A DNA stretch of 64,000 bases, from the NCBI GenBank assembly GCA_965200315.1, contig OZ241362.1, positions 4,896,001 through 4,960,000 on the forward strand, given 5' to 3'. The DNA comes from Candidatus Latescibacterota bacterium. Its GTDB lineage: Bacteria; Latescibacterota; UBA2968; UBA8231. The notes below the pieces were generated by a model. It was not told the DNA's origin, searched no databases, and saw nothing but the letters and a program-made list of their open reading frames with translations. Shown here in pieces: positions 41,970-59,340 of this stretch. The translations under genes were made by a program, and so were the position numbers. The first letter of the stretch is position 1. Each line of letters begins with the position of its first letter.

Positions 41970-42546
41970 CGACGATGCGGCGGAAGGTGAGGTTGAGGCG
42001 CAGGGCGCAGGGCCGTCGGGTCTTGGGGACTTGGTGCTGCCAGTGGGCTTGGGTTGGGCCGCGCATGATGAGCAGCGCACCGTGCCCGAGGGGTATTTCG
42101 ACCGGGGGGTGGTCGCGGCGTTTGTGCCGCAGGAGGAAGCGCCGGGTCTCGCCCAAGCTCAGCGAGGCGATCGTCGGGTTGGCTCCCAACTCGGGCTCGT
42201 CGTCGCTGTGCCAGCCCATGCTGTCGCGACCATCGCGGTACTGATTGAGCAAGACGCTGTTGAAGGGACAGTCGGCGGCGGCTTCGAGCCGCGTCTTGAG
42301 GTCTAGCAGCGGCGCGGTCCACGGGCGCGGCTCTAGCGTTAGTCCCGAATAGGCGTAGTGGGCCTCCGTGGCCCCGTGCCACGCCGAAAGCCGCGGCGCG
42401 GGATGCTGGCGGCCAAAGACGACGACGTGGTGTTGTTGCCACTCAATGTCGTCCAACAGTTGCCGCATGAATTGGTCGGCCTCGGCCGGGGCCAAGAAGT
42501 CGGGGGCGTAGCGGAGGTCGCTGTCTGGGAGGGGAATGGGCCTCAT
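41938..42546 (-). CDS. alkB: AlkB-family 2OG-Fe(II) dioxygenase
   Basis: FNSVLLNQYRDGRDSMGWHSDDE, IASLSLG, WQHQVPK, RLNLTFR. Confidence 0.92.
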   Translation of the reverse strand: MRPIPLPDSDLRYAPDFLAPAEADQFMRQLLDDIEWQQHHVVVFGRQHPAPRLSAWHGATEAHYAYSGLTLEPRPWTAPLLDLKTRLEAAADCPFNSVLLNQYRDGRDSMGWHSDDEPELGANPTIASLSLGETRRFLLRHKRRDHPPVEIPLGHGALLIMRGPTQAHWQHQVPKTRRPCALRLNLTFRRIVATRRPPTDAP

Positions 42547-43442: not shown

Positions 43443-43477
43443 GGTGTGTTGATCCTCTACTATTGAAATGGACGGCC

Positions 43478-44608
43478 CTAAACCACTTGGCCGCCGCGGA
43501 TGGTAGCGACCGGCTCCCAACAGCCACCGGGCCGCTCCTCGCCGTTGACATCGCACAGAGGCAAGGCCGCCTCGTTCCAGTGCAGCACCGCCAAGTCGGC
43601 GCAGGCACCCGGGGCCAAGGTGCCGACTTCGCCCTTTAGGCCCAGCACCTCGGCGGGGCGGGCCGTGGCGCGAGCGAATACCTCGGCTTCGGCCATGCCC
43701 GCAGCAATGAGCTTGGACATGGTGCGGGGCAGGTCGTGTTGGGGGCGGCTGTTGACGTGGCGGTGGTACTAGTCGGTTGAAACCGTGTCGACGAGAAACC
43801 CCTCGGCAATGGTGGCCTCGGCAATGGGAAAGCTGAAGGAGTTCATGCCGTGGCCCAAGTCGAAGAGGACGCCGCGCTGGCGGGCTTGCCATACGTCGTC
43901 GGCAATGCAGTCGCCGTCCATCAGGTTTTCGGGGAGGGCGTTGAGGGAGTAAGTCACTACGTCGCCGGGGCGCAACAGGGCGAGTTGTTCGCGGCGAGAC
44001 CAGTCGGGTTTGAGACGGGTGCCTACCAGCAGCGGTTTGCCGCTCAATTCCGCGGCCTCCAGCCCGGCGGCCATAATGGGGCGCGGGTCCAGGCCGTCGG
44101 CGCAGGCACCGCCAGTGACGGTGACGGCAATGCCCCATATACTCAGGTCGTCTGCGGCGGCTATGGAGTCGGCGCAGGCTTGGGCATCGGCGTCGGCCAA
44201 GTCGTTGAAGCAGCGCACGGGGTGGGTTTCGCCGTGTTTGCACAGGTTGATGGCCAGCAGGACCCGCGTCCGCGAGGCTTCGATCACGGTGCGGCGGTAG
44301 TCGTCTATGTTCACAGCACCGGCATCGCCTTGGGACAGGACGGTGGTGACGCCGCGCGGCAAAAAGTGGATGTCCGGGTCGATGCCAAAGCGCGATTGAC
44401 CGCGCGCTGGGTGGGCGTGCAGATCGACTAGGCCGGGCAGGAGAAGGGCGTCTGGGAAGTCGAGCACGGTGTGGGCTGATCCTTCGATGTCGGGGCCGGC
44501 GGCGACAATGCGGTCGCCGCGGATGGCCACTGCGCCGGGGCCGTCTAGGCCGCTATCCGCGCAGAAGAGCCGCGGGGCACGCACTAATAGGTCGTAGGGT
44601 TCGGTCAT
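43478..44608 (-). pseudogene. dihydroorotase-like amidohydrolase/deacetylase interrupted by an in-frame TAG at 43769-43771
   Basis: PGLVDLHAH, GVTTVLSQGDAG, FDLGHG..SFSF, DTVSTD*YHRH...MSKL...PAEVLGL..EVGTLAPGACADL, all in one frame. Confidence 0.85.
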
Positions 44609-44612
44609 AGTG

Positions 44613-46967
44613 TTAGTAGGCCACGGCGATGGTGCGGAGCGCGGTGTCGTTGCCGGCATCGGCACCTAGATTGACGCGCAGGACGTACAGGCCGGGGGTG
44701 GCACTCGCTCCGTCGGCGTCGCGGCCATCCCAGGTGAAGAGGCGTTGCGAGCCTTCTGTGCTTGGGGTGAGAGCCGCTACTTGGCGTCCGGCTAGGTCAA
44801 AAATTTCCACCTGTGGCTCGCTACCCTCGACTTTGAAGGCGACGAATCGCACCTCTAGCTGGTCGTTGATGCCGTCGCCGTTGGGGGTTACGGTTGCCGA
44901 GGCCAGTTGCAGGTTGCTGATGAGCTGGCCGCTGCTGGTCAGTTCGGGCAGCATGACGATGTTGGAGCGGCGCTCGGCCGCCTCGACCGACTGCCACAGG
45001 CCCGGTACTTCGCTCGACCCTAGGTCGAGGGCAAAGACGGTGGCGTTTTGCAGCAGGCGAGTAGTGAAGCTCACTTGCAGCGAATCGCCGGAAACCATCT
45101 GCGGCAACGCGATGAGCAGCGAGTCGGCCTGCACGTCCAAGGTGGCCGGAACGACCGGTTCTGAGCCGACCAGTACCGACACGCTCTGGAGGTCAACCGG
45201 CTCGGGGACAGTGAAGCGCATTAGGTCGAAGCCGCTGTCGAGTTCGTCGGTCTCGGGCCAGAGGGTGTAGGTGAAGTGCGTGTCTTGGTTGGGGCTGGCT
45301 TCGCGGGGAGCGACGCTGCCGCGCGCGCCTTGGACTAAGGCGTTTTCGTATTCGACCGAGACCGAATTGACGGTTGGGGCGACAGCGGGGTCGTCGGTGG
45401 AGAGGATCATCTCCAACAGCATGAAGCGGCGCGGGCTATCCGACTTGAAAGACTCACCGGAAAACTGGTACACATTGCTCCAGGCGTCCCAGTCCTCGCC
45501 GACAACGAGGGTGGTGTCGATAGGGCCGCGCAGCACTTTGGGCGAACTAGTCCATTTTTCTTCGGTGATTTCTTCGCCGAGCTTATTGCGGAACGTAAAG
45601 ACCGGGGCTAGCGCGTTGCCCGAACGCGAGCGCAATTGCATTCGGGTGCCCGGAGGCAACTCGGCGTCCCAGTGCAGGGCCTTGATGACTTTGGGCCGTC
45701 CATCGCCGGCTTCCTCGCCGAGGTTGATAAAGGCCGACTGCAACTCGACTTGGGCTGGATAACCCGGAGAGAACAGTTGGATTTCACCCCATTTGGTGAT
45801 GCCCCATCCCCTACAGGTAACGCCGTGCCAGAACAGGTAGCGAGCCTTGCGCGGTGCGAATAGGTAGCGCATGTAAAGCAGGTTGTCGGCGTTGGGGGCC
45901 AGATGGGTGAAGACCTGTTCGTAATCGACGTTTTCGGGCACTTCGACGAGGGGGGCAGTGCCCGTGGCTGGGGTGCCATCGGAAAAGAGGAGGGTATGCC
46001 CCGGCCCGGTGCCAGAGATGGTAAAACCCAAGGTCCCTTCATCCGGCTGCATGGAGTAGATGAACATCTCGTCGATAAAGAACGTCGCGCCCAGGTCTGC
46101 GCGGAACCAAGTGCCGCCTTCGGCCCATTCCGACAGCGCGCCGCGACAGTCGGTGACGGTGTTGTTGGTGTTGAGGTTGGCGTCAAAGAGGTTGAAGGTA
46201 GAGCCGGTGCCATCGCCTTCGGCGAAATTGCCGCGCTGGCTGGTGCCGATGGCAATGTTGTCCCCAATGCCGATGACCTCAATCTCGGCGATGGCAGCGT
46301 CGGCGTTTTGCTCTTCGGAAATGATTTGGATGTACTGGATCAATCGGTAGTGGTTGCGTTCTGCGGGTGTTAAGTCCAAATCGGGGTCCAACACTAGCGC
46401 ACTGTCGCGGCCAGCATAGTGCAGCGGGATGAAGATTTCGGAGTCCGTGTTGGGCCGCGTGGTGCGGAAGGCTTGGCGGTAAAGAAAAAGGTCGTCCGTA
46501 GCCGCGATGCGCACGCCAGAGGTGATGAAGACTCGGAATTGGCGGAATGGACGTGCGCCCTCTTGGTCGGGGAATTTCAGGCGAATCTCGCGGGCCAGAG
46601 CCGCGCGACCTAGGTCGATGGTGATAAACCAATCCTCGCGGGCGTCGTCCGGGCGGGGTTGCCAATAGGTCGTTGGGTCGCCGTCGATGGCCCGCGGAGC
46701 ATCGGCCTCGTTGGAACCGGCTTGCCAGAGGCCGCCGGCGACGGCATCGCCCCGTTTGCGGGTCTCATGCGTGAAAAGGTGGGCATCCTCGACGAGGTTG
46801 ATATCCTTGCGAAATTTGACGACCGAGAGCTGGCCCTGCTCGCCGACTTGGACCAAGCCGAAGGGCTGTTGCCATTGGGCCCATTTCTCGGCGGTGTCAA
46901 AGGAGAGCATGTCAGCCGCAAGTGGGGTGGCTAGTGCGAGGCAGGCGATAATTGCGCGTCGCATCAC
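44613..46967 (-). CDS. secreted type-B paralog 3 (discoidin-like modules + FlgD/CHU_C-like CTD)
   Basis: Signal peptide; IDGDP.TYW...IDLG; TPNGDGIND...WDG...GLY...IAVAY. Confidence 0.85.
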   Translation of the reverse strand: MMRRAIIACLALATPLAADMLSFDTAEKWAQWQQPFGLVQVGEQGQLSVVKFRKDINLVEDAHLFTHETRKRGDAVAGGLWQAGSNEADAPRAIDGDPTTYWQPRPDDAREDWFITIDLGRAALAREIRLKFPDQEGARPFRQFRVFITSGVRIAATDDLFLYRQAFRTTRPNTDSEIFIPLHYAGRDSALVLDPDLDLTPAERNHYRLIQYIQIISEEQNADAAIAEIEVIGIGDNIAIGTSQRGNFAEGDGTGSTFNLFDANLNTNNTVTDCRGALSEWAEGGTWFRADLGATFFIDEMFIYSMQPDEGTLGFTISGTGPGHTLLFSDGTPATGTAPLVEVPENVDYEQVFTHLAPNADNLLYMRYLFAPRKARYLFWHGVTCRGWGITKWGEIQLFSPGYPAQVELQSAFINLGEEAGDGRPKVIKALHWDAELPPGTRMQLRSRSGNALAPVFTFRNKLGEEITEEKWTSSPKVLRGPIDTTLVVGEDWDAWSNVYQFSGESFKSDSPRRFMLLEMILSTDDPAVAPTVNSVSVEYENALVQGARGSVAPREASPNQDTHFTYTLWPETDELDSGFDLMRFTVPEPVDLQSVSVLVGSEPVVPATLDVQADSLLIALPQMVSGDSLQVSFTTRLLQNATVFALDLGSSEVPGLWQSVEAAERRSNIVMLPELTSSGQLISNLQLASATVTPNGDGINDQLEVRFVAFKVEGSEPQVEIFDLAGRQVAALTPSTEGSQRLFTWDGRDADGASATPGLYVLRVNLGADAGNDTALRTIAVAY

Positions 46968-46976
46968 AATCTCCTC

Positions 46977-49019
46977 TTAGTAGGCAATGCCCAAAGGGCG
47001 GAGTTGGGGGGCGGCGGCAAATTCCGAGCGCAGGTTTAAGGCCGTCAGGTAGAGGCCGGGCGGCAGCCACTGGCCCGTTTCGTCGCGGCCATCCCAGCGC
47101 AAACTCTGCGGACCCGCGTTCTGCAAGCCAGCCTCGACGAAGGCCACGCGCCGCCCGTCGAGGCTATAGACCTCGAGGACGACAGGCACGGGTTCGGGCA
47201 GGCGGAACAGCGAGTAGGCCACTCGCAACTCGTCGTTGATGCCGTCGCCGTTGGGCGTGAAGACCGCGGAGGACAAAGTCAGGTTCTGAATGAAGGCGGT
47301 TGTTTGCTCGGTAGCGCCGAGTACGCGCAGGCTGTTGGTCGAGAGGGCCTCGCCGACATCGGCACCGATTACAGGTTGCGGCAGGATGTCGCGTTCGCTG
47401 TCTAGTACTTCGCTTTGGAATGTGGTAGCGAATTCAAAGATCTCCGTGCCAAAGACAATGCGGATCGGTGGATTGTTGGTGCGGGTGATGCGCTCGGGTA
47501 GGCGGATGAGTAGGCCCTCGGGCTCTTGGACGACCTCGGCGGGCGCAGTTTCCGTGCGGTTCGCGCCTAGTTGCAGGCTTTTGAGTTCGGTGTGGTGCCC
47601 GGTGCGAATGCGCAGCAGGTCGAAGCCGGGGGCATTTACGGCCTCAAAATCGGCTTGGAGATCATAGACGAATTCTATGGATTCGCCGAGGGGGACTTGG
47701 GTGATCCCGCCGACAGGTTGTGGGTCGTCTAGGAGAGCGACTTCGCCGCGCACATTGGCGGCCAACAGCGGGGCGGTTTCGAGCCACAGCGAGTCGAGGC
47801 GCACGAAATCGTCGAAGGAATCGCTTTCCATGATGACGCGGAACTGCAAATAGGTGCCGTTGCGCAGGCTGATCGGTTGACCCGATTCGACGAAGGGTGC
47901 AGACCAGAAGGTCCAGTTGTCTGAATCGTAGCCGATGGACGCGCGGACGCCGGGTTTGGGCTGGCGTTCGCTCAGGTCGGATGTGGCGGTGATGCGCACG
48001 AAGCGGGTGCGCAGGGCGTTTTCGTAGTGGTCGCGCGAGACCACGCGCTCTAGCCCGGTGTCCATGTACTCGTGATAGACGGCCGGGTCGTCGTCTAGTC
48101 CGGTGCGGATTTCGATCTTGATCTGGGCCGCTGCATCGGGGGTTTCCACCGGGGTCCCATTGACCATGCGGAATTTTGTCGCCTGCCAGAACAGCCGTCC
48201 GAAATTCACCGGTTCGCCGAGGTCGGTTATCTTGGTCTTGTAGATGGTCCGTTGCGGTACCCCTTGGGCAAACAGTTGGAACTCGCTGATCGAGCCGATG
48301 AGGGCAAAGGCGACCAAGTTGTTGGCCGCGGTCAGGGTTACGCGGTCTTCGTCGAGGAGCGAAAGTCGCCGTTGGTAGCGGAAAAAGCGCAGATACTGGC
48401 GGTTGAAGTCAATGCGGACCTGCGGGACAAAATTGTTGTCAACATCGGCGATGACAGTGGAGAGCGGGTTGACATTGCCTTCGAGTACTGGGACTTCGGG
48501 CGCGACTGAGGCGGTTACCTGAAAAGCGGGAATGAAGTCCGTTTCCAGTGGGGTGCCGTCGGAGCGGAAACCCTCGCTGGGCGGGATAAAGCCGAAGGCA
48601 ACCGCCGGCACCGACACGGCCAAATCCATGGTGAAGGTTTCTTTTTGGATGAGGTCGGCTTTGGGGGGGTTATAGGTGAGAGGGTCGCCGTCGATGAGCC
48701 AAGAGCCGTTTTCCGAAGGGTCGGGCACGCCGTGGTTCCACTTCCACATCCGCGGCGTTTCGCCATCGAGGTAGTCGAAGACGCGGTCGCTGGGGTCGCG
48801 CCAGAAGGCCCAATTGTCGATGTGAGAAAAAACCGTTTCATCCAGCGTGAAGTACGTGGGCTGGATGGCACCGGGGGTGGTTGCGAAATCGACGAAGAGG
48901 CGGGTGGTGTCGTTCTCACTCCAGGATAGGCCGCTGCCGCCTAGCTGCCAGTGGGAAATCTGGGCGGTGGTGTTTTGCGCTAAAATTAGGGTGAGCAGGA
49001 CGATTGTGGCACGGCGCAT
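46977..49019 (-). CDS. secreted type-A paralog 3
   Basis: Signal peptide; WQLGGSG, GFRSDGTPL, VNFGRLFW, WTFWS, STNSLRVL, TPNGDGIND, LGIAY; AGGAG RBS. Confidence 0.85.
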   Translation of the reverse strand: MRRATIVLLTLILAQNTTAQISHWQLGGSGLSWSENDTTRLFVDFATTPGAIQPTYFTLDETVFSHIDNWAFWRDPSDRVFDYLDGETPRMWKWNHGVPDPSENGSWLIDGDPLTYNPPKADLIQKETFTMDLAVSVPAVAFGFIPPSEGFRSDGTPLETDFIPAFQVTASVAPEVPVLEGNVNPLSTVIADVDNNFVPQVRIDFNRQYLRFFRYQRRLSLLDEDRVTLTAANNLVAFALIGSISEFQLFAQGVPQRTIYKTKITDLGEPVNFGRLFWQATKFRMVNGTPVETPDAAAQIKIEIRTGLDDDPAVYHEYMDTGLERVVSRDHYENALRTRFVRITATSDLSERQPKPGVRASIGYDSDNWTFWSAPFVESGQPISLRNGTYLQFRVIMESDSFDDFVRLDSLWLETAPLLAANVRGEVALLDDPQPVGGITQVPLGESIEFVYDLQADFEAVNAPGFDLLRIRTGHHTELKSLQLGANRTETAPAEVVQEPEGLLIRLPERITRTNNPPIRIVFGTEIFEFATTFQSEVLDSERDILPQPVIGADVGEALSTNSLRVLGATEQTTAFIQNLTLSSAVFTPNGDGINDELRVAYSLFRLPEPVPVVLEVYSLDGRRVAFVEAGLQNAGPQSLRWDGRDETGQWLPPGLYLTALNLRSEFAAAPQLRPLGIAY

Positions 49020-49088
49020 GATGGCTCTCCTTCCCGAGGGAGGCATGTAATATAATGAGCGGCAAGCAATTGTCCTATTTGCGGCAGA

Positions 49089-51422
49089 TTAGTACGCCAC
49101 GGCGATGGTGCGCAGCGCCGTATCGTCGCCAGCGTCAGCGCCTAAGTTGATGTGGCAGAGGTAGGTGCCGGGCGGCACGAGGTCGTCTTGAGTGGTGAGT
49201 CCGTTCCAAGTAAAGACGTGAGCCACGCCGTCGATGGTGGGAGGAGCTAGCTGGGCGATGGGCCGTCCGGCGAGGTCGAAAATGCGCACTCGGGGTGTGC
49301 GTTGCCTGACCTTGAAGGCGACGAAGCGGATAACCACTGAGTCGTTGATGCCGTCGCCGTTGGGGGAGAGCACTGGCGGGGAAATCGAGAGGTCGTCGAT
49401 GAGTTGGGTCGTGCCGGTCAGGTCGGGCAGCATGACGATATTGGCGCGGCGCGTGATGGGTTCGACCGATTGCCACAAGTCTGGATGGCTGCTCGAACCT
49501 AGGTCGAGACTGAAGAGCGTGGCGTTGTGTAACACGCGGGTGGTGAAGCTGACTTGGACGGAGTCGGCGCTGATTGCGCGGGGCAGGCCGATTTGTAGGG
49601 TATCGGCGCTGATGTCGATGGAAGATGGCTCGACCTGAGTGCTGCCCACGCGGACTTCGACCGCGGAGGCCTCCGAGGGTAGGTCAAAGCGCAGCAGGTC
49701 GAAACCCGCGTCCGCGGCATCGGCGGCGGAGACTAGGGTGTACGTGAAGCGGGTGTCCTCGTTGGGCTGGGCGACTTTTGGGGTGATCAGGCCGCGTGCG
49801 CCCTGCAACAGCGCGTCCTCGTACTCAAGCGATAGTGCGTCAATCGCCGGGGCCACCTGTGGATCGTCGGTTGAGAGGATCAATTCCAACTGCGCGAAGC
49901 GGCGCGGACTTTGCGACTTAAATGCCTCGCCGGAAAAGGTGTACGCCTCGCTCCATCCATCCCAGTCTTCGCTGACCACGACGGTGGTGTCGATTTTTCC
50001 CCGCAGCACTTTGGGCAGGCTGATCCATTGCTCCTCGGTAATCGGCTCGCCGATCTTGTCGTGAAAGGCATAGACTTCGCCTTGGGTATTGCCCGAGCGC
50101 GAGCGCACTTGCAGGTGCGAACCGGGCGGGATGTCGGCGTCCCAAGAGAGACGGCTGATGACTTTGGGCCGCCCGTCGCCAGCGGCCGCGCCGAGATCGA
50201 TAAAGTCCGAGCGCATGATCACTTCGGCGGGATGGCCCGGCGAAAACAGCATCAGTTCGGTCCAGCGCGAGCCCCAGCCTTGGGGGGTGTGGGCGTGCCA
50301 AAACATGTAGCGGACTCTGCGCGGTTGGAACAAATAGCGCAGATAACGCATGGGGTTGAGGTCGGGTTGGTTGATGAGGGCGGCGAAGTCGAAGGATTCG
50401 GGGATGGGGAGTTGAGAGCTGATGACGCGGGTGCCGTCTGAGTGGAGAAAGGTAAAGCCGCGCGGAGGGCTGGCCACGGAACCGACCGTGCCTTCGCGCG
50501 GCCGGAGCGCGTACAGGAAAAGCTCGTCGATCCAGAATACGGCTCCTAGGTCGATGAAAAACCAAGTGCCCTGATCCTCCCAAGTGCGGACGCGGCCCTC
50601 AAAGCCCACGGGCAAAATGGAACTGGCAGTGTTCATGTCGCCGTCGAGGATGTTTTCGGTGGAGCGGGCGGTGAGTCCGTCGATGATGCTGCCGCGGCGG
50701 TCGTTGCCCAAGCTGACGTTGTCGCCGACAGCCATGACTTCGATCTCGGCTAGCGCGCCTTCAGGATCAAAGTCTTCAACGGTGAAATTGATGTACTGGA
50801 TGAGGCGGTACTGGTTGAATTTTTCTAGATCGACGGCGCGGCCGGAGTCGAGGACTTGGGCGCTGTCTTGGAGGTCAAAGGCGAGGGGGAACGAGAGCGT
50901 GGTGTCCCGGTTGGGTCGGGTCGTGAGATAGACCGGGCGAAAGATAAAGAGGTCGTCGAGGGCGTCGGAAGTGATGCCGGTGGCGGTGAAGACTGTGAAC
51001 TGGCGGAAGGGACGAGCGCCTTCTTGGTCGGGAAAGTGCAGGCGGATCTCTTTGGCCAGCACGGCGCGACCGAGGTCAATCTGCACGAACCAGTCGCCGA
51101 GCGCGTCGTCGGGAGAGGCCTGCCAGAAGGTCTCGCGGTCGCCGTCGATGATTCGCCTAGCCGCGGTCGGGTTGCTGCCGGCTTCCCAGATTCCGCCGCG
51201 CACGTTGGCACCGCGCGAGCGGGTGCGGTGGGTAAAGTGGGGCGCGTCGGCTACGGCGTTGATGTCCTTGCGGAATTTGACTAGTCGCAACCGACCGCCA
51301 TCGTCGAACTCGATCAGGCCGTAGGGCCGCTTCCAAGTGGACCAGCTAGCGGCGCTGTCGAAGCGGAATTCCGCGGCCGCGAGAGCCGTTGCCGAACAAA
51401 GGACTGAAAGCAGCAGGCGCAT
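49089..51422 (-). CDS. secreted type-B paralog 2
   Basis: Same motifs as B1/B3: KFRKDINA, FPDQEGARPFRQF, GDGRPKVI, RSRSGN, GADAGDDTALRTIAVAY. Confidence 0.85.
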   Translation of the reverse strand: MRLLLSVLCSATALAAAEFRFDSAASWSTWKRPYGLIEFDDGGRLRLVKFRKDINAVADAPHFTHRTRSRGANVRGGIWEAGSNPTAARRIIDGDRETFWQASPDDALGDWFVQIDLGRAVLAKEIRLHFPDQEGARPFRQFTVFTATGITSDALDDLFIFRPVYLTTRPNRDTTLSFPLAFDLQDSAQVLDSGRAVDLEKFNQYRLIQYINFTVEDFDPEGALAEIEVMAVGDNVSLGNDRRGSIIDGLTARSTENILDGDMNTASSILPVGFEGRVRTWEDQGTWFFIDLGAVFWIDELFLYALRPREGTVGSVASPPRGFTFLHSDGTRVISSQLPIPESFDFAALINQPDLNPMRYLRYLFQPRRVRYMFWHAHTPQGWGSRWTELMLFSPGHPAEVIMRSDFIDLGAAAGDGRPKVISRLSWDADIPPGSHLQVRSRSGNTQGEVYAFHDKIGEPITEEQWISLPKVLRGKIDTTVVVSEDWDGWSEAYTFSGEAFKSQSPRRFAQLELILSTDDPQVAPAIDALSLEYEDALLQGARGLITPKVAQPNEDTRFTYTLVSAADAADAGFDLLRFDLPSEASAVEVRVGSTQVEPSSIDISADTLQIGLPRAISADSVQVSFTTRVLHNATLFSLDLGSSSHPDLWQSVEPITRRANIVMLPDLTGTTQLIDDLSISPPVLSPNGDGINDSVVIRFVAFKVRQRTPRVRIFDLAGRPIAQLAPPTIDGVAHVFTWNGLTTQDDLVPPGTYLCHINLGADAGDDTALRTIAVAY

Positions 51423-51428
51423 CAGACG

Positions 51429-53438
51429 TTAGTACGCAACGCTGAGGGCCAATAGTTGCTTGGCTTGGACGGATTGGGTGTGCAGCGCGAGGGAGAGCAG
51501 GTAGAGGCCCGGTGGAAGAAGCTGGCCGGTCTCGTCGCGGCCATCCCAAGTGATCACTTGAGGGCCGGAGTCTTGCAGGCCCTTGTCGAGGCGGGCGATG
51601 CGGCGGCCATCCAAGGCGTACACTTCGAGTGCTAAGGGCACCGCGCCGGGAAGGCGAAAGAGCGAATAACGCATCTGGAGTTGGTCGTGGACGCCGTCGC
51701 GATTGGGGGTCAGCACCGGGGTAGACAAAGCGAGCGATTGGATAAAGCCGGGCGTTGCGTCGTCTGCACCCAACACCCGCAGGCTGTTGGTGGAAACTGC
51801 CGCGCCGGCGTCGCCGGCCAAAATCGGCTGGGGGAGCGATTGGCTGTCAGCGGCAAAAATTTCGCCGGTGAAGGTGGAGGCGAATTCAAAAACGGCAGTG
51901 GCGAAGGTCACGCGGATCGGCGCGTTGTTGGTGCTGGTGACGCGCTGGGGCAATTGGATCGTCAGCCCGTCGTCTTCGGTTATTGCGACGGGGTTGACGG
52001 GAGCGAGCGGAGTGCCCATTTCGAGGCTGCCGAAGGCCGTGCGGCTGCCGGTGTGAATCCTGAGCGCGTCGAAGCCGGGCGCGCTGGCGTCGTCGAATGC
52101 GGCCCGCACCTGATAGACAAATTCGGTCTCTTGGCCCAAGGCCACTTCGGTAAAGCCGCGCTTGGGTTGCGGGTCGTCGCGCCGCGCCACTTCGGCCAAG
52201 ACCTCGGCGGCCAAGAGCGGCGCGGTCTCAAGCCACAGCGAATCAATCCGCATCCAAGCGTCGAAGTCGCGGCTTTCTAAGGAGAGGTCCACCTGTAAAT
52301 GCGAGCCGCTTCTGAGCCGGACGGTTCGACCCGACTCGGTAAAAGGCTCCGACCAGAAGGACCAGTTGGCTGAATCGTAGCCAATAGAGGCGCGAATGCC
52401 GGGTCGTGGGTCGCGGTTGAGCTGGGCGGTGAGCGCCTCGTAGTGCTCGCGTGCGACCTCCTTTTCGCGGCCGATGTTGGTGTATTCGTGGTACGTCGCC
52501 GGGCTGTCGTCGCGGCCGACGCGGACCCTCGCCTTGAGCCAGACGGGGGCGTCGGGATCTGCGACGACTGCGCCATCGACCAAGCGCAGCGGCGTACCTG
52601 CCCAGTGCAGGCGACCAAAATTTACGACTTGGCCGAGACCGACGACTTGGCTGAGGTACACGACGCGCTGGGGTATGCCTTGGCCGAAAATTTCGAATCC
52701 CCCGATTGAGCCTTTGAGCGCGATGGCTTGGTTGCCTTGGCCGCCGCAGTCGCGGCAGATGTTGAGGGCTTCCTCGTCGGCCAGCGACGTCTGCCGGCGC
52801 CAGCGAAAGAAGCGCACGTATTGGCGCGGGAAGTCGATGCGGACGACGGGGTCGAAGTTGGTCCCCACGTTGGCGATGACTTGCGTGAACAGCTCTCTAC
52901 CGCCCGAGTTGACCGCGGGTTCTGAGTCCGAACCGACGGAGACGTCGAAGGCCGGCGTGGTGTCGAACGGCAGCGGCGTACCATCGGAGCGAAAACCCTG
53001 CGAGGGCGTGAAAAAGCCGAAGCCCACACCGGGGATCGGCACGGCCGTGTCAAGCGAAAAGAAGGTGCTGGCTATCGATTGGCTCCTAGGAGCGTTGTAG
53101 GTGGTGGAATCGCGATCGACTAAGAAGACGCCGCTCTGGGTAGGATCGCCGCCGACGCCGTTCCAGCGGTTCCAAAAGCGCGGCTTTTGGCCATCGACGT
53201 AGCCGAGGTTGTGCAGGGAGGGCTCGCGCCAGAATTGCCAGTTGTCGAGTAGGTGAATGACGTTTTGCTGCGGCTGCAAGTAGCGCGGCTGGATCGCACC
53301 GTCGGCAAAATCGACGAGGACGTGGAGGGAGTCGCGCTGGTCCCACGCCGCCCCACTGCCGCCGAGTTGCCACTTTTCTACTTGCGCGTAGCTAGGGGAG
53401 ATCGCGAGGCCTAGAATCAAAGGCCAAGCTCTGCACAT
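51429..53438 (-). CDS. secreted type-A paralog 2
   Basis: WQLGGSG, GFRSDGTPL, VNFGRLHW, WSFWS, STNSLRVL, LSVAY; GGAGG RBS. Confidence 0.85.
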   Translation of the reverse strand: MCRAWPLILGLAISPSYAQVEKWQLGGSGAAWDQRDSLHVLVDFADGAIQPRYLQPQQNVIHLLDNWQFWREPSLHNLGYVDGQKPRFWNRWNGVGGDPTQSGVFLVDRDSTTYNAPRSQSIASTFFSLDTAVPIPGVGFGFFTPSQGFRSDGTPLPFDTTPAFDVSVGSDSEPAVNSGGRELFTQVIANVGTNFDPVVRIDFPRQYVRFFRWRRQTSLADEEALNICRDCGGQGNQAIALKGSIGGFEIFGQGIPQRVVYLSQVVGLGQVVNFGRLHWAGTPLRLVDGAVVADPDAPVWLKARVRVGRDDSPATYHEYTNIGREKEVAREHYEALTAQLNRDPRPGIRASIGYDSANWSFWSEPFTESGRTVRLRSGSHLQVDLSLESRDFDAWMRIDSLWLETAPLLAAEVLAEVARRDDPQPKRGFTEVALGQETEFVYQVRAAFDDASAPGFDALRIHTGSRTAFGSLEMGTPLAPVNPVAITEDDGLTIQLPQRVTSTNNAPIRVTFATAVFEFASTFTGEIFAADSQSLPQPILAGDAGAAVSTNSLRVLGADDATPGFIQSLALSTPVLTPNRDGVHDQLQMRYSLFRLPGAVPLALEVYALDGRRIARLDKGLQDSGPQVITWDGRDETGQLLPPGLYLLSLALHTQSVQAKQLLALSVAY

Positions 53439-53524
53439 CGAGCACCGTACCTCCGCTGAGGTGAATAATATGTGGGAAGATAAGGCAAAAAGAGCTATGC
53501 GCCGAATTAATGGGATAGGACTTC

Positions 53525-55870
53525 CTAATAGGCGACGGAGATCGTGCGTAGGGCCGTATCGTCACCGGCGTCGGCACCCAGATTGACGCGCAGGACGTAG
53601 ATGCCAGGCTCTACGACTGCGCCACTGGCTTGGGTGCCGTCCCAAGCGAAGAGGTGGTGCAAGCCCTCGGCGACTGGCGTGAGAACCGCTACTTTGCGCC
53701 CGGCGAGGTTGAATACTTCCACTCGGGGCTCGCGGCCTTCGACTTTAAGGACGATGAACCGCACCTCTAGCTGATCGTTGATGCCGTCGCCGTTGGGCGT
53801 GAGTGTCGGCGAGGAAATGAAGAAGTCGTCGATAAGCTGGCTGCTACGGGTCAGTTCGGGCAGCATGACGATATTGGCCCGGCGTGTTGCCGGTTCGACC
53901 GACTGCCAGAGGCCCGGATGCGCGCTGGAGCCTAAGTCCAACGCAAAGAGCGTGGCATTGCGCACTAAGCGGGTGGTAAAGTGGACGCGGACCGAATCGT
54001 CTCTGACTGGTTCGGGTAAAGCGATGAGCAGGGAGTCGCCGCGCCGGGAAGCTGCTGCCGAGACGGTTTCTACGCCCTTTTCCACGCTCACGCTAGGCAG
54101 GTTAATCGGCCCCGGTAGGTCGAAGCGCATGAGGTCGAAGCCGACGTCATCGGGGCCGGCGCTGGGCAGCAGAGTATAGGTGAAGGCCGTCTCCTCATTG
54201 GGAGGAGCACTGCGCGGCTCGACGCGCCCGTGGGCACTCAGGAGTAGCGCCGCGTCGAATTCGATCGACAGGGTGTTGACTGTGGGCGCGACCTCGGGGT
54301 CGTCGGTGGCGAGAATCAACTCCAGTTGTACAAAGCGCCGCGGACTTTGCGATTTAAAGGTTTCACCGGAAAATTGGTACACATTGCTCCACGCATCCCA
54401 GTCCTCGCCGACCACTAGCGTGGAGTCAACCGGGCCGCGCAGCACTTTGGGCGAGCTATTCCATTTTTCTTCGGTGATTTCCTCGCCGATTTTGTTGTGG
54501 AAGGTATAGATCGGTGCCAGCGCGTTGCCCGAACGCGAGCGCAGTTGCATTCTGGCTGCTGGAGGCAGGTCGGCGTCCCAGTGCAGGGCCTTGATGACTT
54601 TGGGCCGCTCGTCGCCGGCTTCGGCACCGAGGTCGATGAAGCCCGAAGTAAGCACAACTTGGGCGGGATGACCTAACGAGAACAGCATAAATTCGGCCCA
54701 TTTGGATTCGAGCCAGCCTTGGTCGGACAGGCCGTGCCAGAACAGATAACGCATCTGGCGCGGGCGGAATTTGTAGCGGATGCGGTAGAGGTCTGCGGCT
54801 GCGGGATTGTCGTGGGTGAGCAGTTCGCTGTAGTCGAGTGGCGCGGGTACGGGCAGAGAAGTGCCCACGCTGCGGCTGCCGTCGGAGAACAGGATGCGGT
54901 GCCCTGAGCCAGCACTGCCGCGATGACTGCCGGTGGTGCCCTCAAAGCGGCGCAAGACGTAGATAAACAGCTCATCGACGAAGAACACGGCCCCCATATC
55001 GACGTAAAACCAAGTGCCGGCCCCCTCCCACCCTTGGTCGCCGCGGCCCGAGGTGATGAGGTTGTTGGTGTTGATATCGGCGTCGAAGAGATTGGCGGGT
55101 GCGGCGGCGACCGTGCCGTTGAGGAAGCTGCCGCGCTCGGCGGCGCCGATGCTGATGTTGTCGCCCACAGTGAGTATTTCGACTTCGGCGAGCGCGGCAG
55201 CTAGGCTCTGGTCTTCGACGACGATACTGATGTACTGAATTACTTGATAGCGGTTTTCAAAGGTTCGATCAATGGCCATATCTGGATCAACCGTCAGGAC
55301 GGTATCGGTGGCCGGATACTCGAGGGGAATGGTCAGGGAAGTGGCGCGGTTGGGCTGGGTGGTGCGATAGACTGGCTCGTATTTGAAAACGTCGGCCGTA
55401 GCTTGGATGCGCGCCCCGGTGGTGCCATAAACGGTGAACTGCCGCAGCGGGTGCGCACCTTGTTGGTCGGGGAAGGTCAGGCGAATGTGGCGGGCGAGTA
55501 CAGCGCGTCCCAAGTCTATATCGAGGAACCAATTTTTGAGCTCGTCGTTCGGGTCGGGTTGCCAGAAGGTCGCGGGATCGCCATCGATGGCGTTTGCGGC
55601 TGTCGTGCGCCCGCTGCCGGCCTGCCAAATTCCGCCTGCCACTTCGCCGCGTTCTTGGGTGGAATGGGTGAAGAGATGGGCGTCGCGGATGGCATCCACT
55701 TCCTTGCGGTATTTGGTCAGGCGCAGCACACCTTCTGCATCCACCTGGACCAGCCCGGCAGGCATGGTCCAGCTTTGCCATTTTTCTGCGCTGTCGAAAC
55801 TCAGCATTTCGGCCCAGCCGGCAACAGCCGGCACAGCGAGCCAAGCTATAAGGGCAACGAGAAAGCGCAT
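53525..55870 (-). CDS. secreted type-B paralog 1
   Basis: Signal peptide MRFLVALIAWLAVPAVA; B-family motifs; ends ISVAY. Confidence 0.85.
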   Translation of the reverse strand: MRFLVALIAWLAVPAVAGWAEMLSFDSAEKWQSWTMPAGLVQVDAEGVLRLTKYRKEVDAIRDAHLFTHSTQERGEVAGGIWQAGSGRTTAANAIDGDPATFWQPDPNDELKNWFLDIDLGRAVLARHIRLTFPDQQGAHPLRQFTVYGTTGARIQATADVFKYEPVYRTTQPNRATSLTIPLEYPATDTVLTVDPDMAIDRTFENRYQVIQYISIVVEDQSLAAALAEVEILTVGDNISIGAAERGSFLNGTVAAAPANLFDADINTNNLITSGRGDQGWEGAGTWFYVDMGAVFFVDELFIYVLRRFEGTTGSHRGSAGSGHRILFSDGSRSVGTSLPVPAPLDYSELLTHDNPAAADLYRIRYKFRPRQMRYLFWHGLSDQGWLESKWAEFMLFSLGHPAQVVLTSGFIDLGAEAGDERPKVIKALHWDADLPPAARMQLRSRSGNALAPIYTFHNKIGEEITEEKWNSSPKVLRGPVDSTLVVGEDWDAWSNVYQFSGETFKSQSPRRFVQLELILATDDPEVAPTVNTLSIEFDAALLLSAHGRVEPRSAPPNEETAFTYTLLPSAGPDDVGFDLMRFDLPGPINLPSVSVEKGVETVSAAASRRGDSLLIALPEPVRDDSVRVHFTTRLVRNATLFALDLGSSAHPGLWQSVEPATRRANIVMLPELTRSSQLIDDFFISSPTLTPNGDGINDQLEVRFIVLKVEGREPRVEVFNLAGRKVAVLTPVAEGLHHLFAWDGTQASGAVVEPGIYVLRVNLGADAGDDTALRTISVAY

Positions 55871-55871
55871 T

Positions 55872-57884
55872 TTAGTAGGCGATGCCCAGCGGATGCAGCA
55901 GGCGTTCACTGATGCCTTCGGATTGCAGCGCTACTTCGAGCAGGTAGAGGCCGGGCTGTAGGAGTTGCCCCTGCGCGTCGCGTCCATCCCAGCGAAGGTG
56001 CTGCGGTCCAGCAGCCTGCGGCGCAAACGACAGGCGTGCGACTTGCCGGCCATCGAGAGAATAGGCCCGCAGTTCGACGGGTACGCTAGCAGGCAGGCGG
56101 AAGAGGGAATAAGATACCTGCACTAGGTCGTTTACCCGGTCGCCGTTGGGAGTCAAAACTGGCGTTGAAAAGCGCAGGTTCTGGATGGCGTTGACAGGAC
56201 CGCCTTTTGCACTCAGAACGCGCAGGCTGTTGGTCGATACGGCGGGTGTGGCATCGCCGCCGCGGATGGGTTGGGGTAGGCTTTGGGTTGCGGTGTCGAT
56301 GGCCTCGCCTTCAAAGGTCGTGGCGAAGACGAAGACATCGGCCATGAACTCGATGCGGATGGGCGCGTTGTTGGCGGCGTGGACCCGCTCGGGCAGTTCG
56401 ATGAAGAACTCGTCGTCGTTGATCTCGACCCGGCGGGGCTCGACGGACACCAATGGATCGCCCATTGCCAACGTTGGAAGGTGGACTCGGCTGCCGGTGC
56501 GGATGCGCAGCGCGTCGAAGCCTAGCTCTGAGGCGGCGAAGTCGGCGCGAATATCGTAGCTGAAGCCAGTCGCCTGCCCTAGGGCCACTTCGGTGAAACC
56601 GCTCGGTTGCGGGTCGTCGAGGCGGGCGACTTCGCCAATGATCTGACTGGCGAGAAGCGGTGCTTGCTCGATCCACAGCGAATCTAGGCGCGTAAAGGCG
56701 TCGAAATCCGCGCTGTCGAGGGTAATTTTGACTTGGATATGGGAGCCGCTGTGGAGGTTGAATGGCTGGCCAGACGCGGTGAAGGCGGGCGACCAGAAGG
56801 TCCAGTGGTCCTCGTCATAGGCTATTGACGCGCGGACTCCAGGCCGCTCGCCGGCGACGTAGCCGTAGCCCTGCGACTCCTTGAGTTCAAACTCGTACCG
56901 CTGGCGCGAGACTTCAACCTCGCGGCCCTTGTCGTCAAATTCGCGGTACACGTTGGGGTCTTGGTCTCTACCGGTGCGCACCTCGACGCGCAACCCGACA
57001 GCCGCGGCCGGATCCGGGACCAAGGTGCTGTCCACCATTCGCATGGAGGTCGCCGACCAGAACAGCCGGCCAAAGTTCACTTCCGAGCCCAGATCGATGA
57101 TTTTGGATAGATATAGTACGCGTTGCGGGATTCCGCGGGCGTAGAGTTCAAAGTCGCCGATGGTGCCTGGCCGCGCTTGACCCGACAGCGAATTCTTTTG
57201 GATGACCAAGGTCGGATCGAGTACCGACTCGTTGCGACGCCAGCGGATGAAGCGGACATATTGGCGCGGCATGTCGATTTGCACGGTGGGGGACAGATTT
57301 TCGGCGACATTGGCGATAAGCGGGCCAATGGGCGCGTAGGCGTTGTGCCCATGCCATTCGGGATCGGCTTCGGTGGCAACGCTCACTTCAAAGGCGGGCA
57401 CCGCATCTTCGGCCAGTGGAGTACCATCCGAGCGGAACCCACGCGGTGGCGTGAAAAAGCCGAAGCGGGTGGCCGGGACGGGCACCGCCACGTCAAAAGT
57501 AAACCAGTCGAAGTTCCGCAGGTCCGAGGACGGGGGGTTGTAGGTGGTGCTGTCGCCGTCAACTAGATACGTGGCATTGTGTACGGGTCGCGAGTCGCCC
57601 AAGCCCAGCTTCCAAGCGCGGGGCCGCTGGCCATCGACATAGCCGAGTTCGCGGGGGAATTTCCACGGAGACCAGTTGTCGAGGTGCGAAAAAACGGTTT
57701 GGGCCGAGGTCAGGTAGATGGGCTGGATGGCCCCGGGGACGGAATCGAAGTCGATGAAGATGCGTACCGAATCGCTCGCCGACCATGCAAGGCCACCGCT
57801 GCCGCCGAGCTGCCAAGTGCTTATTTGCGCCGACAGAACACTGGGCAGGAGAAGCGGAAAGAGGGTGGCAAAGATGCGGTGCAT
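55872..57884 (-). CDS. secreted type-A paralog 1
   Basis: Signal peptide; A-family motifs; TPNGDRVND; ends LGIAY. Confidence 0.85.
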   Translation of the reverse strand: MHRIFATLFPLLLPSVLSAQISTWQLGGSGGLAWSASDSVRIFIDFDSVPGAIQPIYLTSAQTVFSHLDNWSPWKFPRELGYVDGQRPRAWKLGLGDSRPVHNATYLVDGDSTTYNPPSSDLRNFDWFTFDVAVPVPATRFGFFTPPRGFRSDGTPLAEDAVPAFEVSVATEADPEWHGHNAYAPIGPLIANVAENLSPTVQIDMPRQYVRFIRWRRNESVLDPTLVIQKNSLSGQARPGTIGDFELYARGIPQRVLYLSKIIDLGSEVNFGRLFWSATSMRMVDSTLVPDPAAAVGLRVEVRTGRDQDPNVYREFDDKGREVEVSRQRYEFELKESQGYGYVAGERPGVRASIAYDEDHWTFWSPAFTASGQPFNLHSGSHIQVKITLDSADFDAFTRLDSLWIEQAPLLASQIIGEVARLDDPQPSGFTEVALGQATGFSYDIRADFAASELGFDALRIRTGSRVHLPTLAMGDPLVSVEPRRVEINDDEFFIELPERVHAANNAPIRIEFMADVFVFATTFEGEAIDTATQSLPQPIRGGDATPAVSTNSLRVLSAKGGPVNAIQNLRFSTPVLTPNGDRVNDLVQVSYSLFRLPASVPVELRAYSLDGRQVARLSFAPQAAGPQHLRWDGRDAQGQLLQPGLYLLEVALQSEGISERLLHPLGIAY

Positions 57885-57955
57885 GGGCAGGACTCGCGGG
57901 AGACAGGCGGCCTATAAAAGTTAAATACGCAAAATCGGTCGCTTGGACAAGTGGC

Positions 57956-59176
57956 CTAGGCCCTGAATGGCACCAGCCAATCCTCCTCAATCCCCAAGTC
58001 AAAGCCCGGTCCGCACGGCGCAAATTCCAAGTAGCTTTCTTTAGGCACCAGTGCCCCGGACTCGGCTACTTCCTCCAGCGGAATCCCCGGGGCCGAGCCA
58101 ATGTAGTACTCGCCCCAAGGCGTGTTGGGCATGGCCCAAGTCAAGTGCTGGCCGTAAGGATCGCGCCCGCCGCCGTGGAGGCAGACTTCGAGGCCGGCGG
58201 CCTCGGCCATGTGGCAGATTTTGATACAGGCGGTCAGCCCGCCGACCCAGTGGATATCGGGTTGCAGCACATCGAGGGCGCGGTGCTCGATCATTTGTTG
58301 ATAGGGGTAGTGCGTGTAGAAGTGCTCGCCGCTGGCCAGCGTTTGCCAAGGCAGGCATTCTTTGAGTTTGATGTGGCTTTTGACGTCTTCGGGGATCAGG
58401 CACTCCTCCAGCCAGCGCAACTTGTAGGGTCTGAGGCGCTCGGCTAGGCGGACGCTGTATTCGACGTCAAAGGCCATGTAGCAGTCGAGCATGAGTTCGC
58501 AGTCATCGCCGATTAATGCGCGGACTTCGGCAATCCGCCGCTCGTTTTGGTCTAGGCCCCACAGGCCGTCGACCGGGCCGTATTGGCAGGGGAGTTTGAA
58601 GGCTCTGAAGCCCAGCTCGCGGTACCAATCGACGTCGTCGCCGGTGGCGTAGGTGAAGATGCGCTCGCGGGCCGGGCCGCCGATGAGCTGGTACACGGGC
58701 TTTTGTTGCAGCTTGCCGGCCAAGTCCCACAGCGCGAGGTCCACGGCGCTGATGGCGACGGTGGCGATGCCGACCGTGCCGAAAGGTTTGGAGACGCGGA
58801 ACATCATATCCCACAACTTGTCGATGGCCAAGCAGTCTTCGCCTATGAGGATATGGGCGAAAGCGTCTTCGACGACCGCAGCGGCGGGCCGACCAGCCGC
58901 CGTGCCCAGCCCCCAAGTGCCGTCTTCGGCTGTGACTTTGACCGCGAAGCCGGGCCATTGCCGGGCACCGTAGAGTTGACGCCGGGGCTTGAAACGCGGA
59001 AAGCGCGACATTGGGTTGGCCACTTCGATTTCGGTGGGCCAAGCCTTGCGGTGGGGTTGGCTCTGCTGAGCCGGGGCCGTCGAGGCGGAGAGCGTCGAGC
59101 CGGCTTGGGAACGGGCGCGGAGCGAAGGCCCGTCGGGGCGTTCGACGCGGACTAGGTCGATGGATTTGATTTTCAT
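57956..59176 (-). CDS. enolase-superfamily acid-sugar dehydratase (L-rhamnonate dehydratase-like)
   Basis: VANPMSRFP, AISAVDLALWDL.GK, LMLDCYM, WLEE, ASGEH, LQPDIHWVGGLT. Confidence 0.88.
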   Translation of the reverse strand: MKIKSIDLVRVERPDGPSLRARSQAGSTLSASTAPAQQSQPHRKAWPTEIEVANPMSRFPRFKPRRQLYGARQWPGFAVKVTAEDGTWGLGTAAGRPAAAVVEDAFAHILIGEDCLAIDKLWDMMFRVSKPFGTVGIATVAISAVDLALWDLAGKLQQKPVYQLIGGPARERIFTYATGDDVDWYRELGFRAFKLPCQYGPVDGLWGLDQNERRIAEVRALIGDDCELMLDCYMAFDVEYSVRLAERLRPYKLRWLEECLIPEDVKSHIKLKECLPWQTLASGEHFYTHYPYQQMIEHRALDVLQPDIHWVGGLTACIKICHMAEAAGLEVCLHGGGRDPYGQHLTWAMPNTPWGEYYIGSAPGIPLEEVAESGALVPKESYLEFAPCGPGFDLGIEEDWLVPFRA

Positions 59177-59340
59177 TGCTTTAGACGCCTTAGAGTTAAA
59201 TTTCCGTGAATGTATCTTATATCTAATGAATCCATAAAAACCAGCGGTGCTATTCGCTGGAGGCAATCAGCCACAGTCAATCTCGATCAGCAAGCGGCAA
59301 TGGTCGCTTGATCCCTCGTTGCATAAATTCCTTTGTCGAA

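Follow-up and report, generated by a model that had tools for sequence, protein, structure and literature searches.

Among the closest described systems are the cargo proteins of type IX secretion systems (T9SS), such as the gingipains of Porphyromonas gingivalis and ChiA, SprB, and RemA of Flavobacterium johnsoniae; the CBM32 (F5/8 type C, or discoidin) jelly rolls of Clostridium perfringens proteins; the SusD and SusE/SusF-like proteins of Sus-type loci; and, in eukaryotes, the paired discoidin domains of neuropilin and of coagulation factors V and VIII. Here we analyze an array of six genes that resembles each of these in part, located in a 64,000-nucleotide stretch (the window; assembly GCA_965200315.1, contig OZ241362.1, positions 4,896,001 to 4,960,000) of the genome of a Candidatus Latescibacterota bacterium. 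Six minus-strand open reading frames (ORFs) occupy window positions 44613–57884 in the strict order A1-B1-A2-B2-A3-B3, where A and B denote two types of large, related protein (Table 1). The reading toward which we lean is that the array comprises three tandem A-then-B modules of a lineage-restricted, hugely expanded family of secreted, non-catalytic, all-beta proteins with a glycan- or ligand-binding role at the cell surface.

The ORF coordinates and GC content bear out the gene order, strand, and spacing described in a first-pass annotation of the sequence: the genes of each pair are separated by 1, 6, and 9 nt (A1/B1, A2/B2, and A3/B3, respectively), and the spacers between pairs are AT-richer than the array as a whole (61.7% GC; Table 1). 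Gene lengths are quoted with the most plausible starts; the longest ORF for B1, of 794 aa from a GTG codon, overlaps A1. By BLASTP, the A copies are 50–51% identical among themselves and the B copies 53–60%, and A aligns with B over 320–530 C-terminal residues (about 430 in most pairs) at 23–28% identity, with E values of 1e-20 to 1e-28 that imply homology, not chance. All six proteins terminate in ...AY. Contigs from one DNA and two RNA sequencing runs contain "joints" that link paralogous positions of the array (e.g. 44999 to 53943, with 31 letters between); the sides of these joints are just 21–30 letters long, and they most likely reflect other paralogs or strains, not real deletions.

The 5.36 Mb single-contig genome contains 103 full-length family members (60 A-type, 38 B-type, and 5 others), whose DNA amounts to 234,777 bp, or 4.4% of the genome. 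With a cluster defined as same-strand family genes separated by gaps under 400 nt, the forms observed are AB (8 clusters), AAB (5), ABA (4), AA (3), BA (2), and ABABAB (1, the window array), which leaves 23 A, 16 B, and 5 other genes unclustered. An A gene directly precedes 20 of the 38 B genes; counted on both strands, an A lies within 400 nt of 22 of them. When the distance is widened to 10 kb, 33/38 B genes have an A nearby and 49/60 A genes a B, and five B genes have no A at all. The multiple copies and the A-then-B adjacency that the first-pass annotation proposed to look for are both present, together with many unpaired genes and with AAB and ABA forms.

Comparison of the A and B trees reveals an old split followed by co-divergence. 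In a FastTree phylogeny of the module shared by the two types, 38/38 B-type proteins fall in one clade (support 99) and 59/60 A-type proteins in the other (support 95), from which we conclude that the A/B division is old, consistent with the earlier proposal that A and B are ancient paralogs. In the 20 adjacent A-then-B pairs, distances among the A proteins correlate with those among their B partners (Mantel r 0.93, a value that none of 5000 permutations attained); for 12 of the 20, A and B have their nearest relatives in one and the same other pair; and entire AAB and ABA triplets, too, have counterparts among sister loci in the tree. This co-divergence implies that the module was duplicated as a unit; taken alone, it does not demonstrate contact between A and B. 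The order also recurs elsewhere in the phylum, with A directly upstream of B on the same strand in one genome from each of five other families (G022, G026, G029, G044, and G046), in which AAB and ABA forms are likewise found, along with BB and BAA in G029. The correlated distances and the recurrent order support the earlier suggestion, and we conclude that the A-B pair is a real unit of duplication.

Orthologous arrays were found in four genomes of related species. That of G011 contains the same six genes, at 86–92% amino acid identity, whereas those of two congeneric genomes, G010 (L064:10573-14873) and G001 (L065:4058-8643) carry an extra tandem A3, in the order A1-B1-A2-B2-A3-A3'-B3, with A3 and A3' each 88–91% identical to A3 of the window; the array of G009 has a variant upstream end. 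The ratio of nonsynonymous to synonymous substitution rates (dN/dS) relative to G011 and G010 is 0.12–0.21 in every gene of the array, and no single domain exceeds 0.34. The orthologous arrays are under purifying selection, and each paralog has therefore been retained as a functional gene with a sequence of its own, in keeping with separate roles.

The family is restricted in its distribution. With A1 as the query (E up to 1e-40), matches were obtained in 12/12 congeneric genomes and in 0/8 genomes from two other families of the class. The central D2-D3 module (Table 1), searched at E up to 1e-8, matched 86 of 168 genomes of the phylum: 71/75 in the bacterium's own family (f1), 2/3 in f5, 3/3 in f6, 2/2 in f9, 1/1 in f11, 5/6 in f12, and 1/5 in f14, with no match in f2 (0/31), f3 (0/3), f4 (0/22), f10 (0/13), or the single genomes of f7, f8, and f13 (0/1 each). 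Candidate counts at first look were 38–174 in the same genus and mostly below 60 elsewhere. Among 1.84 billion cluster representatives, the same module retrieved no more than 409 proteins at E ≤0.001 (71 at E ≤1e-30), indicating that the family is globally rare but strongly expanded here. Its members are named in the source records only as "hypothetical protein" or "FlgD immunoglobulin-like domain containing protein," in genomes labelled Latescibacterota or Gemmatimonadota. The first-pass annotation recognized no described system of this kind, and we found no description of the family in the main-text literature searched (Latescibacterota with T9SS, FlgD, and related terms; supplements lay outside the search). 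In the passages searched, PMC12993501 (on sponge-Latescibacterota genomes) mentions CBM twice, in general terms, and does not mention FlgD, secretion systems, discoidin, lectins, or adhesins.

Hidden Markov models (HMMs) trained on the six proteins and searched iteratively against every ORF of the genome show the N-terminal domain of A (about 200 aa) to be homologous to each of the two N-terminal domains of B, and closest to the second; A thus combines one head with a common module of about 420 aa, and B combines two heads with that same module. AlphaFold2 models of A1 (pLDDT 87.7, pTM 0.77; alignment of 56 sequences) and B1 (pLDDT 90.9, pTM 0.79; 55 sequences) are confident and all-beta. Exhaustive structural comparison of the models superimposed the A1 head on the CBM32 structure 4a42_B (Z 12.9, root-mean-square deviation [rmsd] 2.5 over 123 aa), and residues 55–235 of B1 on the same entry (Z 15.9, rmsd 2.0, 125 aa), with dozens more CBM32 entries below it in both match lists. 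Residues 55–404 of B1 matched neuropilin b1b2 (2qqi_A; Z 13.6, 274 aa; Foldseek target-normalized TM-score [TMt] 0.47–0.50). Further along the chains, A1 residues 411–561 resemble Ig- or pilin-like sandwiches (Z about 10) and B1 residues 547–673 YcnI-like sandwiches (Z 12.1). The C-terminal domains (CTDs) of both proteins match the CTD of the T9SS sortase PorU (6za2_B), with Z 12.0 and rmsd 2.4 over 99 aa for A1 residues 563–670, and Z 11.2 and rmsd 3.2 over 97 aa for B1 residues 676–781. Mean pairwise identity across paralogs is lowest in the heads (26% for the A CBM32-like domain, 24% for B domain b) and highest in D2 (31% in A, 39% in B) and the CTD (37% and 38%), although the difference is modest.

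In Pfam, FlgD_ig or CHU_C matched the C-terminal region of all six proteins: FlgD_ig exceeds its cut-off of 27 bits in A1 (30.3), A2 (28.9), A3 (31.3), and B3 (27.9), and CHU_C exceeds 27 bits in B1 (29.0) and B3 (30.0), falling below it in B2 (26.2) and in A2 and A3. NCBIfam returned sub-threshold matches only, to FlgD, PorU tail, and T9SS sorting-domain models. The common C-terminal domain that the first-pass annotation had noticed is thus present throughout, and can be refined to a FlgD_ig/CHU_C domain of the T9SS sorting kind. The same annotation had read discoidin (F5/8 type C) motifs in all six proteins; in Pfam the signal is confined to B, near residues 90–165 and close to the cut-offs (PF00754 in B1, 28.4 bits versus 28.2; PF22633 in B3, 27.9 bits versus 27.8, and in B2 just under, at 26.0, so that B2 lies below both), while for A it comes from the iterated HMMs and the fold.

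Judged from the models, all six proteins are all-beta, without a recognizable enzyme fold. This agrees with the earlier remark that no catalytic motif could be seen: Foldseek and structural comparison yielded CBM32/discoidin heads and no catalytic fold, with D2 and D3 barely probed, and there was no enzyme match for the A or B proteins in Pfam, NCBIfam, or PDB-sequence searches, the PDB profile searches matching only FlgD, C5a peptidase tail, and CBM32 segments. No whole-chain relative appeared among the Foldseek matches listed (query-normalized TM-score [TMq] ≤0.18 for A1 and ≤0.24 for B1), and with D2 and D3 searched within whole chains, matches to any enzyme or S-layer family were limited to part of the chain (TMq ≤0.24).

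Features consistent with export are found at both ends of the proteins. All six N-termini, read by eye, have a short charged stretch, a hydrophobic run of 12–18 residues, and a small-residue site, such as ...SVLSAQ|IS in A1 and ...AVAGWA|EM in B1. The CTD folds of the A1 and B1 models are like the solved T9SS CTD of PorU, and the genome encodes PorU (NF033707, 615 bits, over the cut-off) and SprA (TIGR04189, over the cut-off), together with a PorV-like gene adjoining that for PorU (149.8 bits, under the cut-off of 250). Surface display or secretion, as proposed at first pass, is therefore plausible from the CTD and the presence of PorU and SprA, and export of the A and B proteins to the cell surface is a plausible prediction.

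Table 1. Positions of the array genes, their predicted domains, the intergenic spacers, and the adjoining genes (window coordinates; all on the minus strand)
Feature	Positions	Strand	Length or residues	Remarks
A1	55872..57884	-	670 aa	ORF scan; begins with signal peptide and N-terminal strands
A1 CBM32-like head	57129-57713	-	~58-252
A1 D2			253-410	beta-sandwich
A1 D3			411-562	immunoglobulin-like (Ig-like)
A1 CTD	55875-56198	-	563-670	T9SS type
B1	53525..55870	-	781 aa	ORF scan; from ATG; begins with signal peptide
B1 CBM32-like head a	55166-55708	-	~55-235
B1 CBM32-like head b	54671-55153	-	~240-400
B1 D2			401-545
B1 D3			546-675	Ig-like
B1 CTD	53528-53845	-	676-781
A2	51429..53438	-	669 aa	A-type paralog; ORF 51% identical to A1
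B2	49089..51422	-	777 aa	B-type paralog; ORF 53% identical to B1
A3	46977..49019	-	680 aa	A-type paralog; 689 aa with alternative start 49046
B3	44613..46967	-	784 aa	B-type paralog; ORF 60% identical to B1
Spacer upstream of A1	57885..57955	-	71 nt	54.9% GC
Spacer pair 1/pair 2	53439..53524	-	86 nt	47.7% GC
Spacer pair 2/pair 3	49020..49088	-	69 nt	50.7% GC
Enolase-superfamily sugar-acid dehydratase-like gene	57956..59266	-		MR_MLE_N, MR_MLE_C; upstream of A1, same strand
Amidohydrolase/deacetylase-like gene	43481..44608	-		downstream, starts 4 nt after B3; NF006689, 172 bits vs cut-off 371
DHDPS-family, N-acetylneuraminate-lyase-like aldolase	42543..43450 (start approximate)	-		DHDPS 1.9e-57; NF003164, 188.8 bits vs cut-off 281

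The array is flanked by genes that resemble those of sugar-acid catabolism. The enolase-superfamily neighbor is closest to L-rhamnonate dehydratase (NF011968, 278 bits versus a cut-off of 393). The amidohydrolase-like gene contains an in-frame stop at 43769–43771; a frameshift in this gene was considered and rejected, an in-frame stop being found instead. Its orthologue in G011 is an intact ORF of 395 aa, 91.7% identical, and at position 43771 contigs from runs X4 (DNA) and X7 (RNA library) read G for A, which removes the stop, while X6 (RNA library) reads A. The stop is a strain polymorphism or an assembly error. Beyond the aldolase lie BNR/sortilin-like, FG-GAP/RGL11-like, PhyH, and GFO/IDH/MocA genes and two more CTD proteins; the remainder of the window is housekeeping. 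A Pfam scan of 41 other window ORFs detected no TonB-dependent receptor or SusD family member, and neither A nor B matched a SusD family in Pfam.

Several other genes of the window deserve mention. Minus-strand genes at 28068–29582, 34750–35763, 35776–37146, and 37150–38145 encode further proteins of secreted or eukaryote-like type (Por_Secre_tail CTD, ankyrin-repeat, FG-GAP/RGL11-like, and BNR/sortilin-like, respectively), and an ORF at 33411–34622 (−), in which Fic_N is joined to Schlafen AlbA_2, is possibly regulatory or defence-related. At 62943–63998 (−), running off the window end, a protein of 1583 aa in the full genome combines a Lamin Tail Domain with a FlgD_ig/Por_Secre_tail CTD; two of its paralogs adjoin other A/B loci, at genome positions 2982250–2984607 and 5195386–5197818.

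DNA runs labelled sponge metagenome contain 0.89–0.99 of the sampled words of the stretch, and two metatranscriptome libraries from the study that is its probable source contain 0.73 and 0.65. Contigs from these RNA libraries cover 30/30 bins of the region 43500–59500, spanning A1/B1 (X7 record 23) and A3/B3 (X6 record 10, X7 record 18) and also joining B3 to the downstream gene, which fits expression and co-transcription. Among the matches listed, no RNA-library contig crosses the B1-A2 spacer; contigs prove nothing on transcript ends, and no conclusion is drawn from this.

We propose that the A and B proteins would cross the inner membrane by the Sec pathway and the outer membrane by the T9SS (SprA, PorU, and the PorV-like gene product), and would then either stay attached to the cell surface or be set free. 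D3 and D2 could together form a stalk from which the CBM32-like heads project to contact glycans or glycoconjugates as ligands. A and B made from one transcript might engage the same ligand, with three lectin-like domains per module, and the three modules of the array may differ in specificity. Because a sugar-acid dehydratase, a deacetylase-like hydrolase, and a sialate/KDG-type aldolase lie beside the array, it may capture the substrate for that pathway. A surface glycan- or ligand-binding role, suggested by the fold and by these neighboring genes, is the best reading of the locus and, in our judgment, somewhat probable.

Several observations weigh against this reading. A CBM32-like fold is no proof of sugar binding, and discoidin domains also bind lipids, collagen, and other proteins. 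No F5/8 type C match was obtained in Pfam for A1, A2, or A3 at E up to 0.1, and the scores in B lie at or around the gathering scores. D2 and D3 were barely probed by the fold searches because CBM32 matches filled the structural lists, so that an activity hidden there is possible. As regards export, the signal peptides were judged by eye, with no predictor run, and the T9SS sorting models TIGR04131 (type B) and TIGR04183 (type A) gave only matches below cut-off. One RNA-library contig bridges A1 and the upstream gene (X6 record 16), and the RNA evidence consists of assembled contigs from one study, in which DNA carry-over is possible and which cannot reveal a single transcript. Consensus scans of 44000–58500 returned 2 promoter-like sites versus 2.4 expected by chance and 15 terminator-like sites versus 13.4 expected, and the spacers are therefore not shown to hold promoters; a sigma-70-like match in the 49020..49088 spacer (AGGACA, 16 nt, TATATT) is no evidence by itself in a region at chance level, and the 53439..53524 spacer contains no promoter-like site in the scan. 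Finally, the trees mismatch within the array itself, where A1 is nearest to A2 and B1 nearest to B3.

The first-pass annotation had proposed that each A and its neighboring B form an obligate heterodimeric surface receptor in which neither works alone, and the within-pair gaps of 1–9 nt, the co-divergence of A and B (r 0.93), the A-then-B order kept in five other families, and the common D2-D3 module, through which the two proteins could pair side by side, would all suit such an arrangement. However, co-divergence follows from duplication as a unit and does not need contact, 16/38 B and 23/60 A genes have no same-strand family member within 400 nt, and five of the 38 B genes lack an A within 10 kb. 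The unpaired genes, the AAB (5), ABA (4), AA (3), and BA (2) clusters, and the extra A3 without an extra B in G010 and G001 speak against an obligate pairing in strict 1:1 ratio; a search of proteins of 1174–3350 aa (E up to 1e-10) detected no A-B fusion, which is weak evidence. A complex prediction for A1 20–410 with B1 20–545, leaving out D3 and the CTDs, scored 0.13 against a mark of 0.32, gives no verdict, and was not used either way. The obligate heterodimer is thus not upheld, and we regard it as unlikely. A different function for the heads, as adhesins that recognize sponge extracellular matrix or cell-surface molecules during colonization or recognition and not nutrient glycans, would agree with the high representation of the stretch in sponge-metagenome DNA, with the ankyrin-repeat, FG-GAP, and BNR/sortilin-like proteins also encoded in the window, and with the inclusion, among the closest tandem-domain folds, of neuropilin and coagulation factor C domains, whose ligands are proteins and lipids. 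For single domains, in contrast, bacterial CBM32 modules in complex with galactose, GalNAc, and similar sugars match best, sugar-acid catabolic genes flank the array, and the family with its A-then-B order also occurs in small genomes of other families of the phylum for which the habitat is not established; an adhesive role seems quite improbable to us.

If the proteins were cryptic enzymes, D2 would be a jelly-roll glycoside hydrolase or polysaccharide lyase missed by sequence models, with the CBM32-like heads for targeting. D2 is among the most conserved parts of both types, contains invariant Arg, Asp, and Trp residues (R303, G305, D307, D357, W361, and W364 invariant in A; R444, R446, D490, and W491 in B), and is the region that the fold searches barely reached. 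Yet Pfam, NCBIfam, and PDB-sequence searches gave no enzyme match, the A1 matches that span residues 20–410 are phage tail beta-sandwich proteins (9nwi_Y, Z 12.1, 124 aa), and no hydrolase or lyase was matched through D2 among the Foldseek matches listed (best 50 for each protein). We consider this explanation very improbable. We give hardly any credence to the idea that the proteins are structural units of an S-layer-like surface coat whose paralogs provide surface variation, e.g. against phages or grazers. The family is very large and predicted to be surface-directed, and the S-layer protein 7ptp_A is among the weak whole-chain Foldseek matches, but its TMq of 0.15 is no better than that of dozens of unrelated multi-domain beta proteins, and paralogs 25–60% identical that are each kept across species (dN/dS 0.12–0.21) fit fixed separate functions better than switching.

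Elsewhere in the genome, the A/B genes have recurrent neighbors. Within 6 kb of the 67 A/B family loci we found a secreted protein of about 900 aa and no named family, with a conserved C-terminus ...FITVYAGL (40/67 loci), a secreted protein of about 320 aa, also of no named family (30/67), TPR or PMT_2-TPR proteins, the latter with PMT_2 at the N-terminus (27/67), SurA-like double peptidyl-prolyl isomerases with two PPIC-type domains (26/67), FG-GAP/UnbV_ASPIC proteins (17/67), a small lipoprotein-like ORF of about 250 aa (13/67), DUF6785/DUF6784 proteins, assumed to be membrane-bound (12/67), and an enolase-superfamily gene (10/67); L061, L062, L068, L070, and L071 are example loci for the TPR, SurA-like, FG-GAP, lipoprotein-like, and DUF6785/DUF6784 neighbors. 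Of these neighbor families, only the enolase-superfamily gene is present at the window array. The ~900-aa family comprises 48 ORFs (some of them overlapping alternative calls) of about 870–1000 aa, with a signal peptide, repeats rich in Asp and Asn (DNDDQD, NQNDN), and a C-terminus ...F(I/V)T(V/I)YAGL (e.g. L070:13455-16112(+), L068:4879-7506(+), and L071:4992-7940(-)). Pfam gave no match for five members at E ≤0.001 and, at E ≤5, chance-level matches in two single members; NCBIfam (two members) and PDB-sequence searches (a seven-sequence profile, E up to 10) were also negative. Its nearest named Atlas cluster is DUF6029, "TonB-dependent receptor-like beta-barrel" (0.88), which we treat as a lead only. 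The ~320-aa family comprises 26 ORFs of about 300–340 aa with a signal peptide and a C-terminus ...(S/T)WG(R/Q)IK(A/S)xF (e.g. L070:3146-4129(+) and L071:2135-3160(-)); Pfam (two members) and NCBIfam (one member) gave no match, and a small outer-membrane protein would be compatible with the length and the aromatic terminus of these sequences.

The recurrence of the ~900-aa protein, the SurA-like chaperones, and the TPR proteins hints at a larger, undescribed envelope system. The A-B modules might then be the ligand-capturing arm of a T9SS-dependent, phylum-specific apparatus, Sus-like but unrelated to Sus, replicated dozens of times with different specificities; we offer this tentatively, as a rather doubtful possibility. 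Its other parts could be the ~900-aa protein with its barrel-like C-terminus, the ~320-aa protein, the TPR/PMT_2-TPR and FG-GAP/ASPIC proteins, the SurA-like isomerases, the lipoprotein, and the DUF6785/DUF6784 proteins, and the window array would represent a reduced version, with three sets of capture modules only. The first-pass annotation had set the array apart from SusC/SusD on the grounds that no TonB-dependent barrel is present. This holds for the array itself, but the contrast with Sus-type loci is less clear genome-wide because 40/67 loci have the ~900-aa protein within 6 kb.

Should the A and B proteins be surface glycan binders, as we favor, the bacterium would devote 4.4% of its genome to about 100 paralogous capture proteins in co-evolving, T9SS-exported two-gene modules. 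This would represent a substrate-recognition repertoire outside Bacteroidota that operates without SusC/SusD, and would provide a testable handle on how these uncultured bacteria find substrates or their host. It would also add D2 and D3, two beta-sandwich modules that fall outside every curated family, and points to conserved envelope proteins of no named family that travel with the A/B family.

With respect to known systems, the two heads of B superpose as a pair on neuropilin b1b2 (2qqi_A, rmsd 5.1; TMt up to 0.50) and in this resemble the C1-C2 domains of coagulation factors V and VIII; these are eukaryotic protein- and lipid-binding receptors, however, to which B has no detectable sequence relationship beyond the fold. 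The individual heads resemble the CBM32/F5/8 type C modules of C. perfringens GH89, NanJ, and ZmpB, with which they share the jelly roll (Z 12.9–15.9, rmsd 2.0–2.9, 123–132 aa), the DGD..T..W motif, and, in B, a tandem arrangement as in ZmpB CBM32-1/-2. In contrast to those glycosidases and peptidases, A and B have no enzyme in the same polypeptide and only 9–22% sequence identity to the modules, and the domain interrupts a further beta-sandwich, separating its N-terminal strands from its remainder.

By analogy, the A and B proteins may also be likened to SusD and the SusE/SusF-like proteins, being apparently non-catalytic, putatively surface-exposed tandem beta-sandwiches encoded at many paralogous loci beside sugar catabolic genes, and the SusE-like protein BT2857 (7m1a) is among their fold matches (Z 9.7 and 11.3). 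Unlike Sus proteins, they are not homologous to SusD, a T9SS CTD replaces the lipoprotein anchor, and no SusC-type TonB-dependent transporter is encoded in or beside the array. The likeness to T9SS cargo lies in the signal peptide and the C-terminal beta-sandwich of about 100 aa that superposes on the PorU CTD, in a genome that encodes PorU and SprA. A and B differ from that cargo in having neither a catalytic nor a known adhesin repeat domain, in the FlgD_ig/CHU_C flavor of their CTD, and in occurring as co-diverging modules, at about 100 copies per genome, in a lineage outside Bacteroidota.

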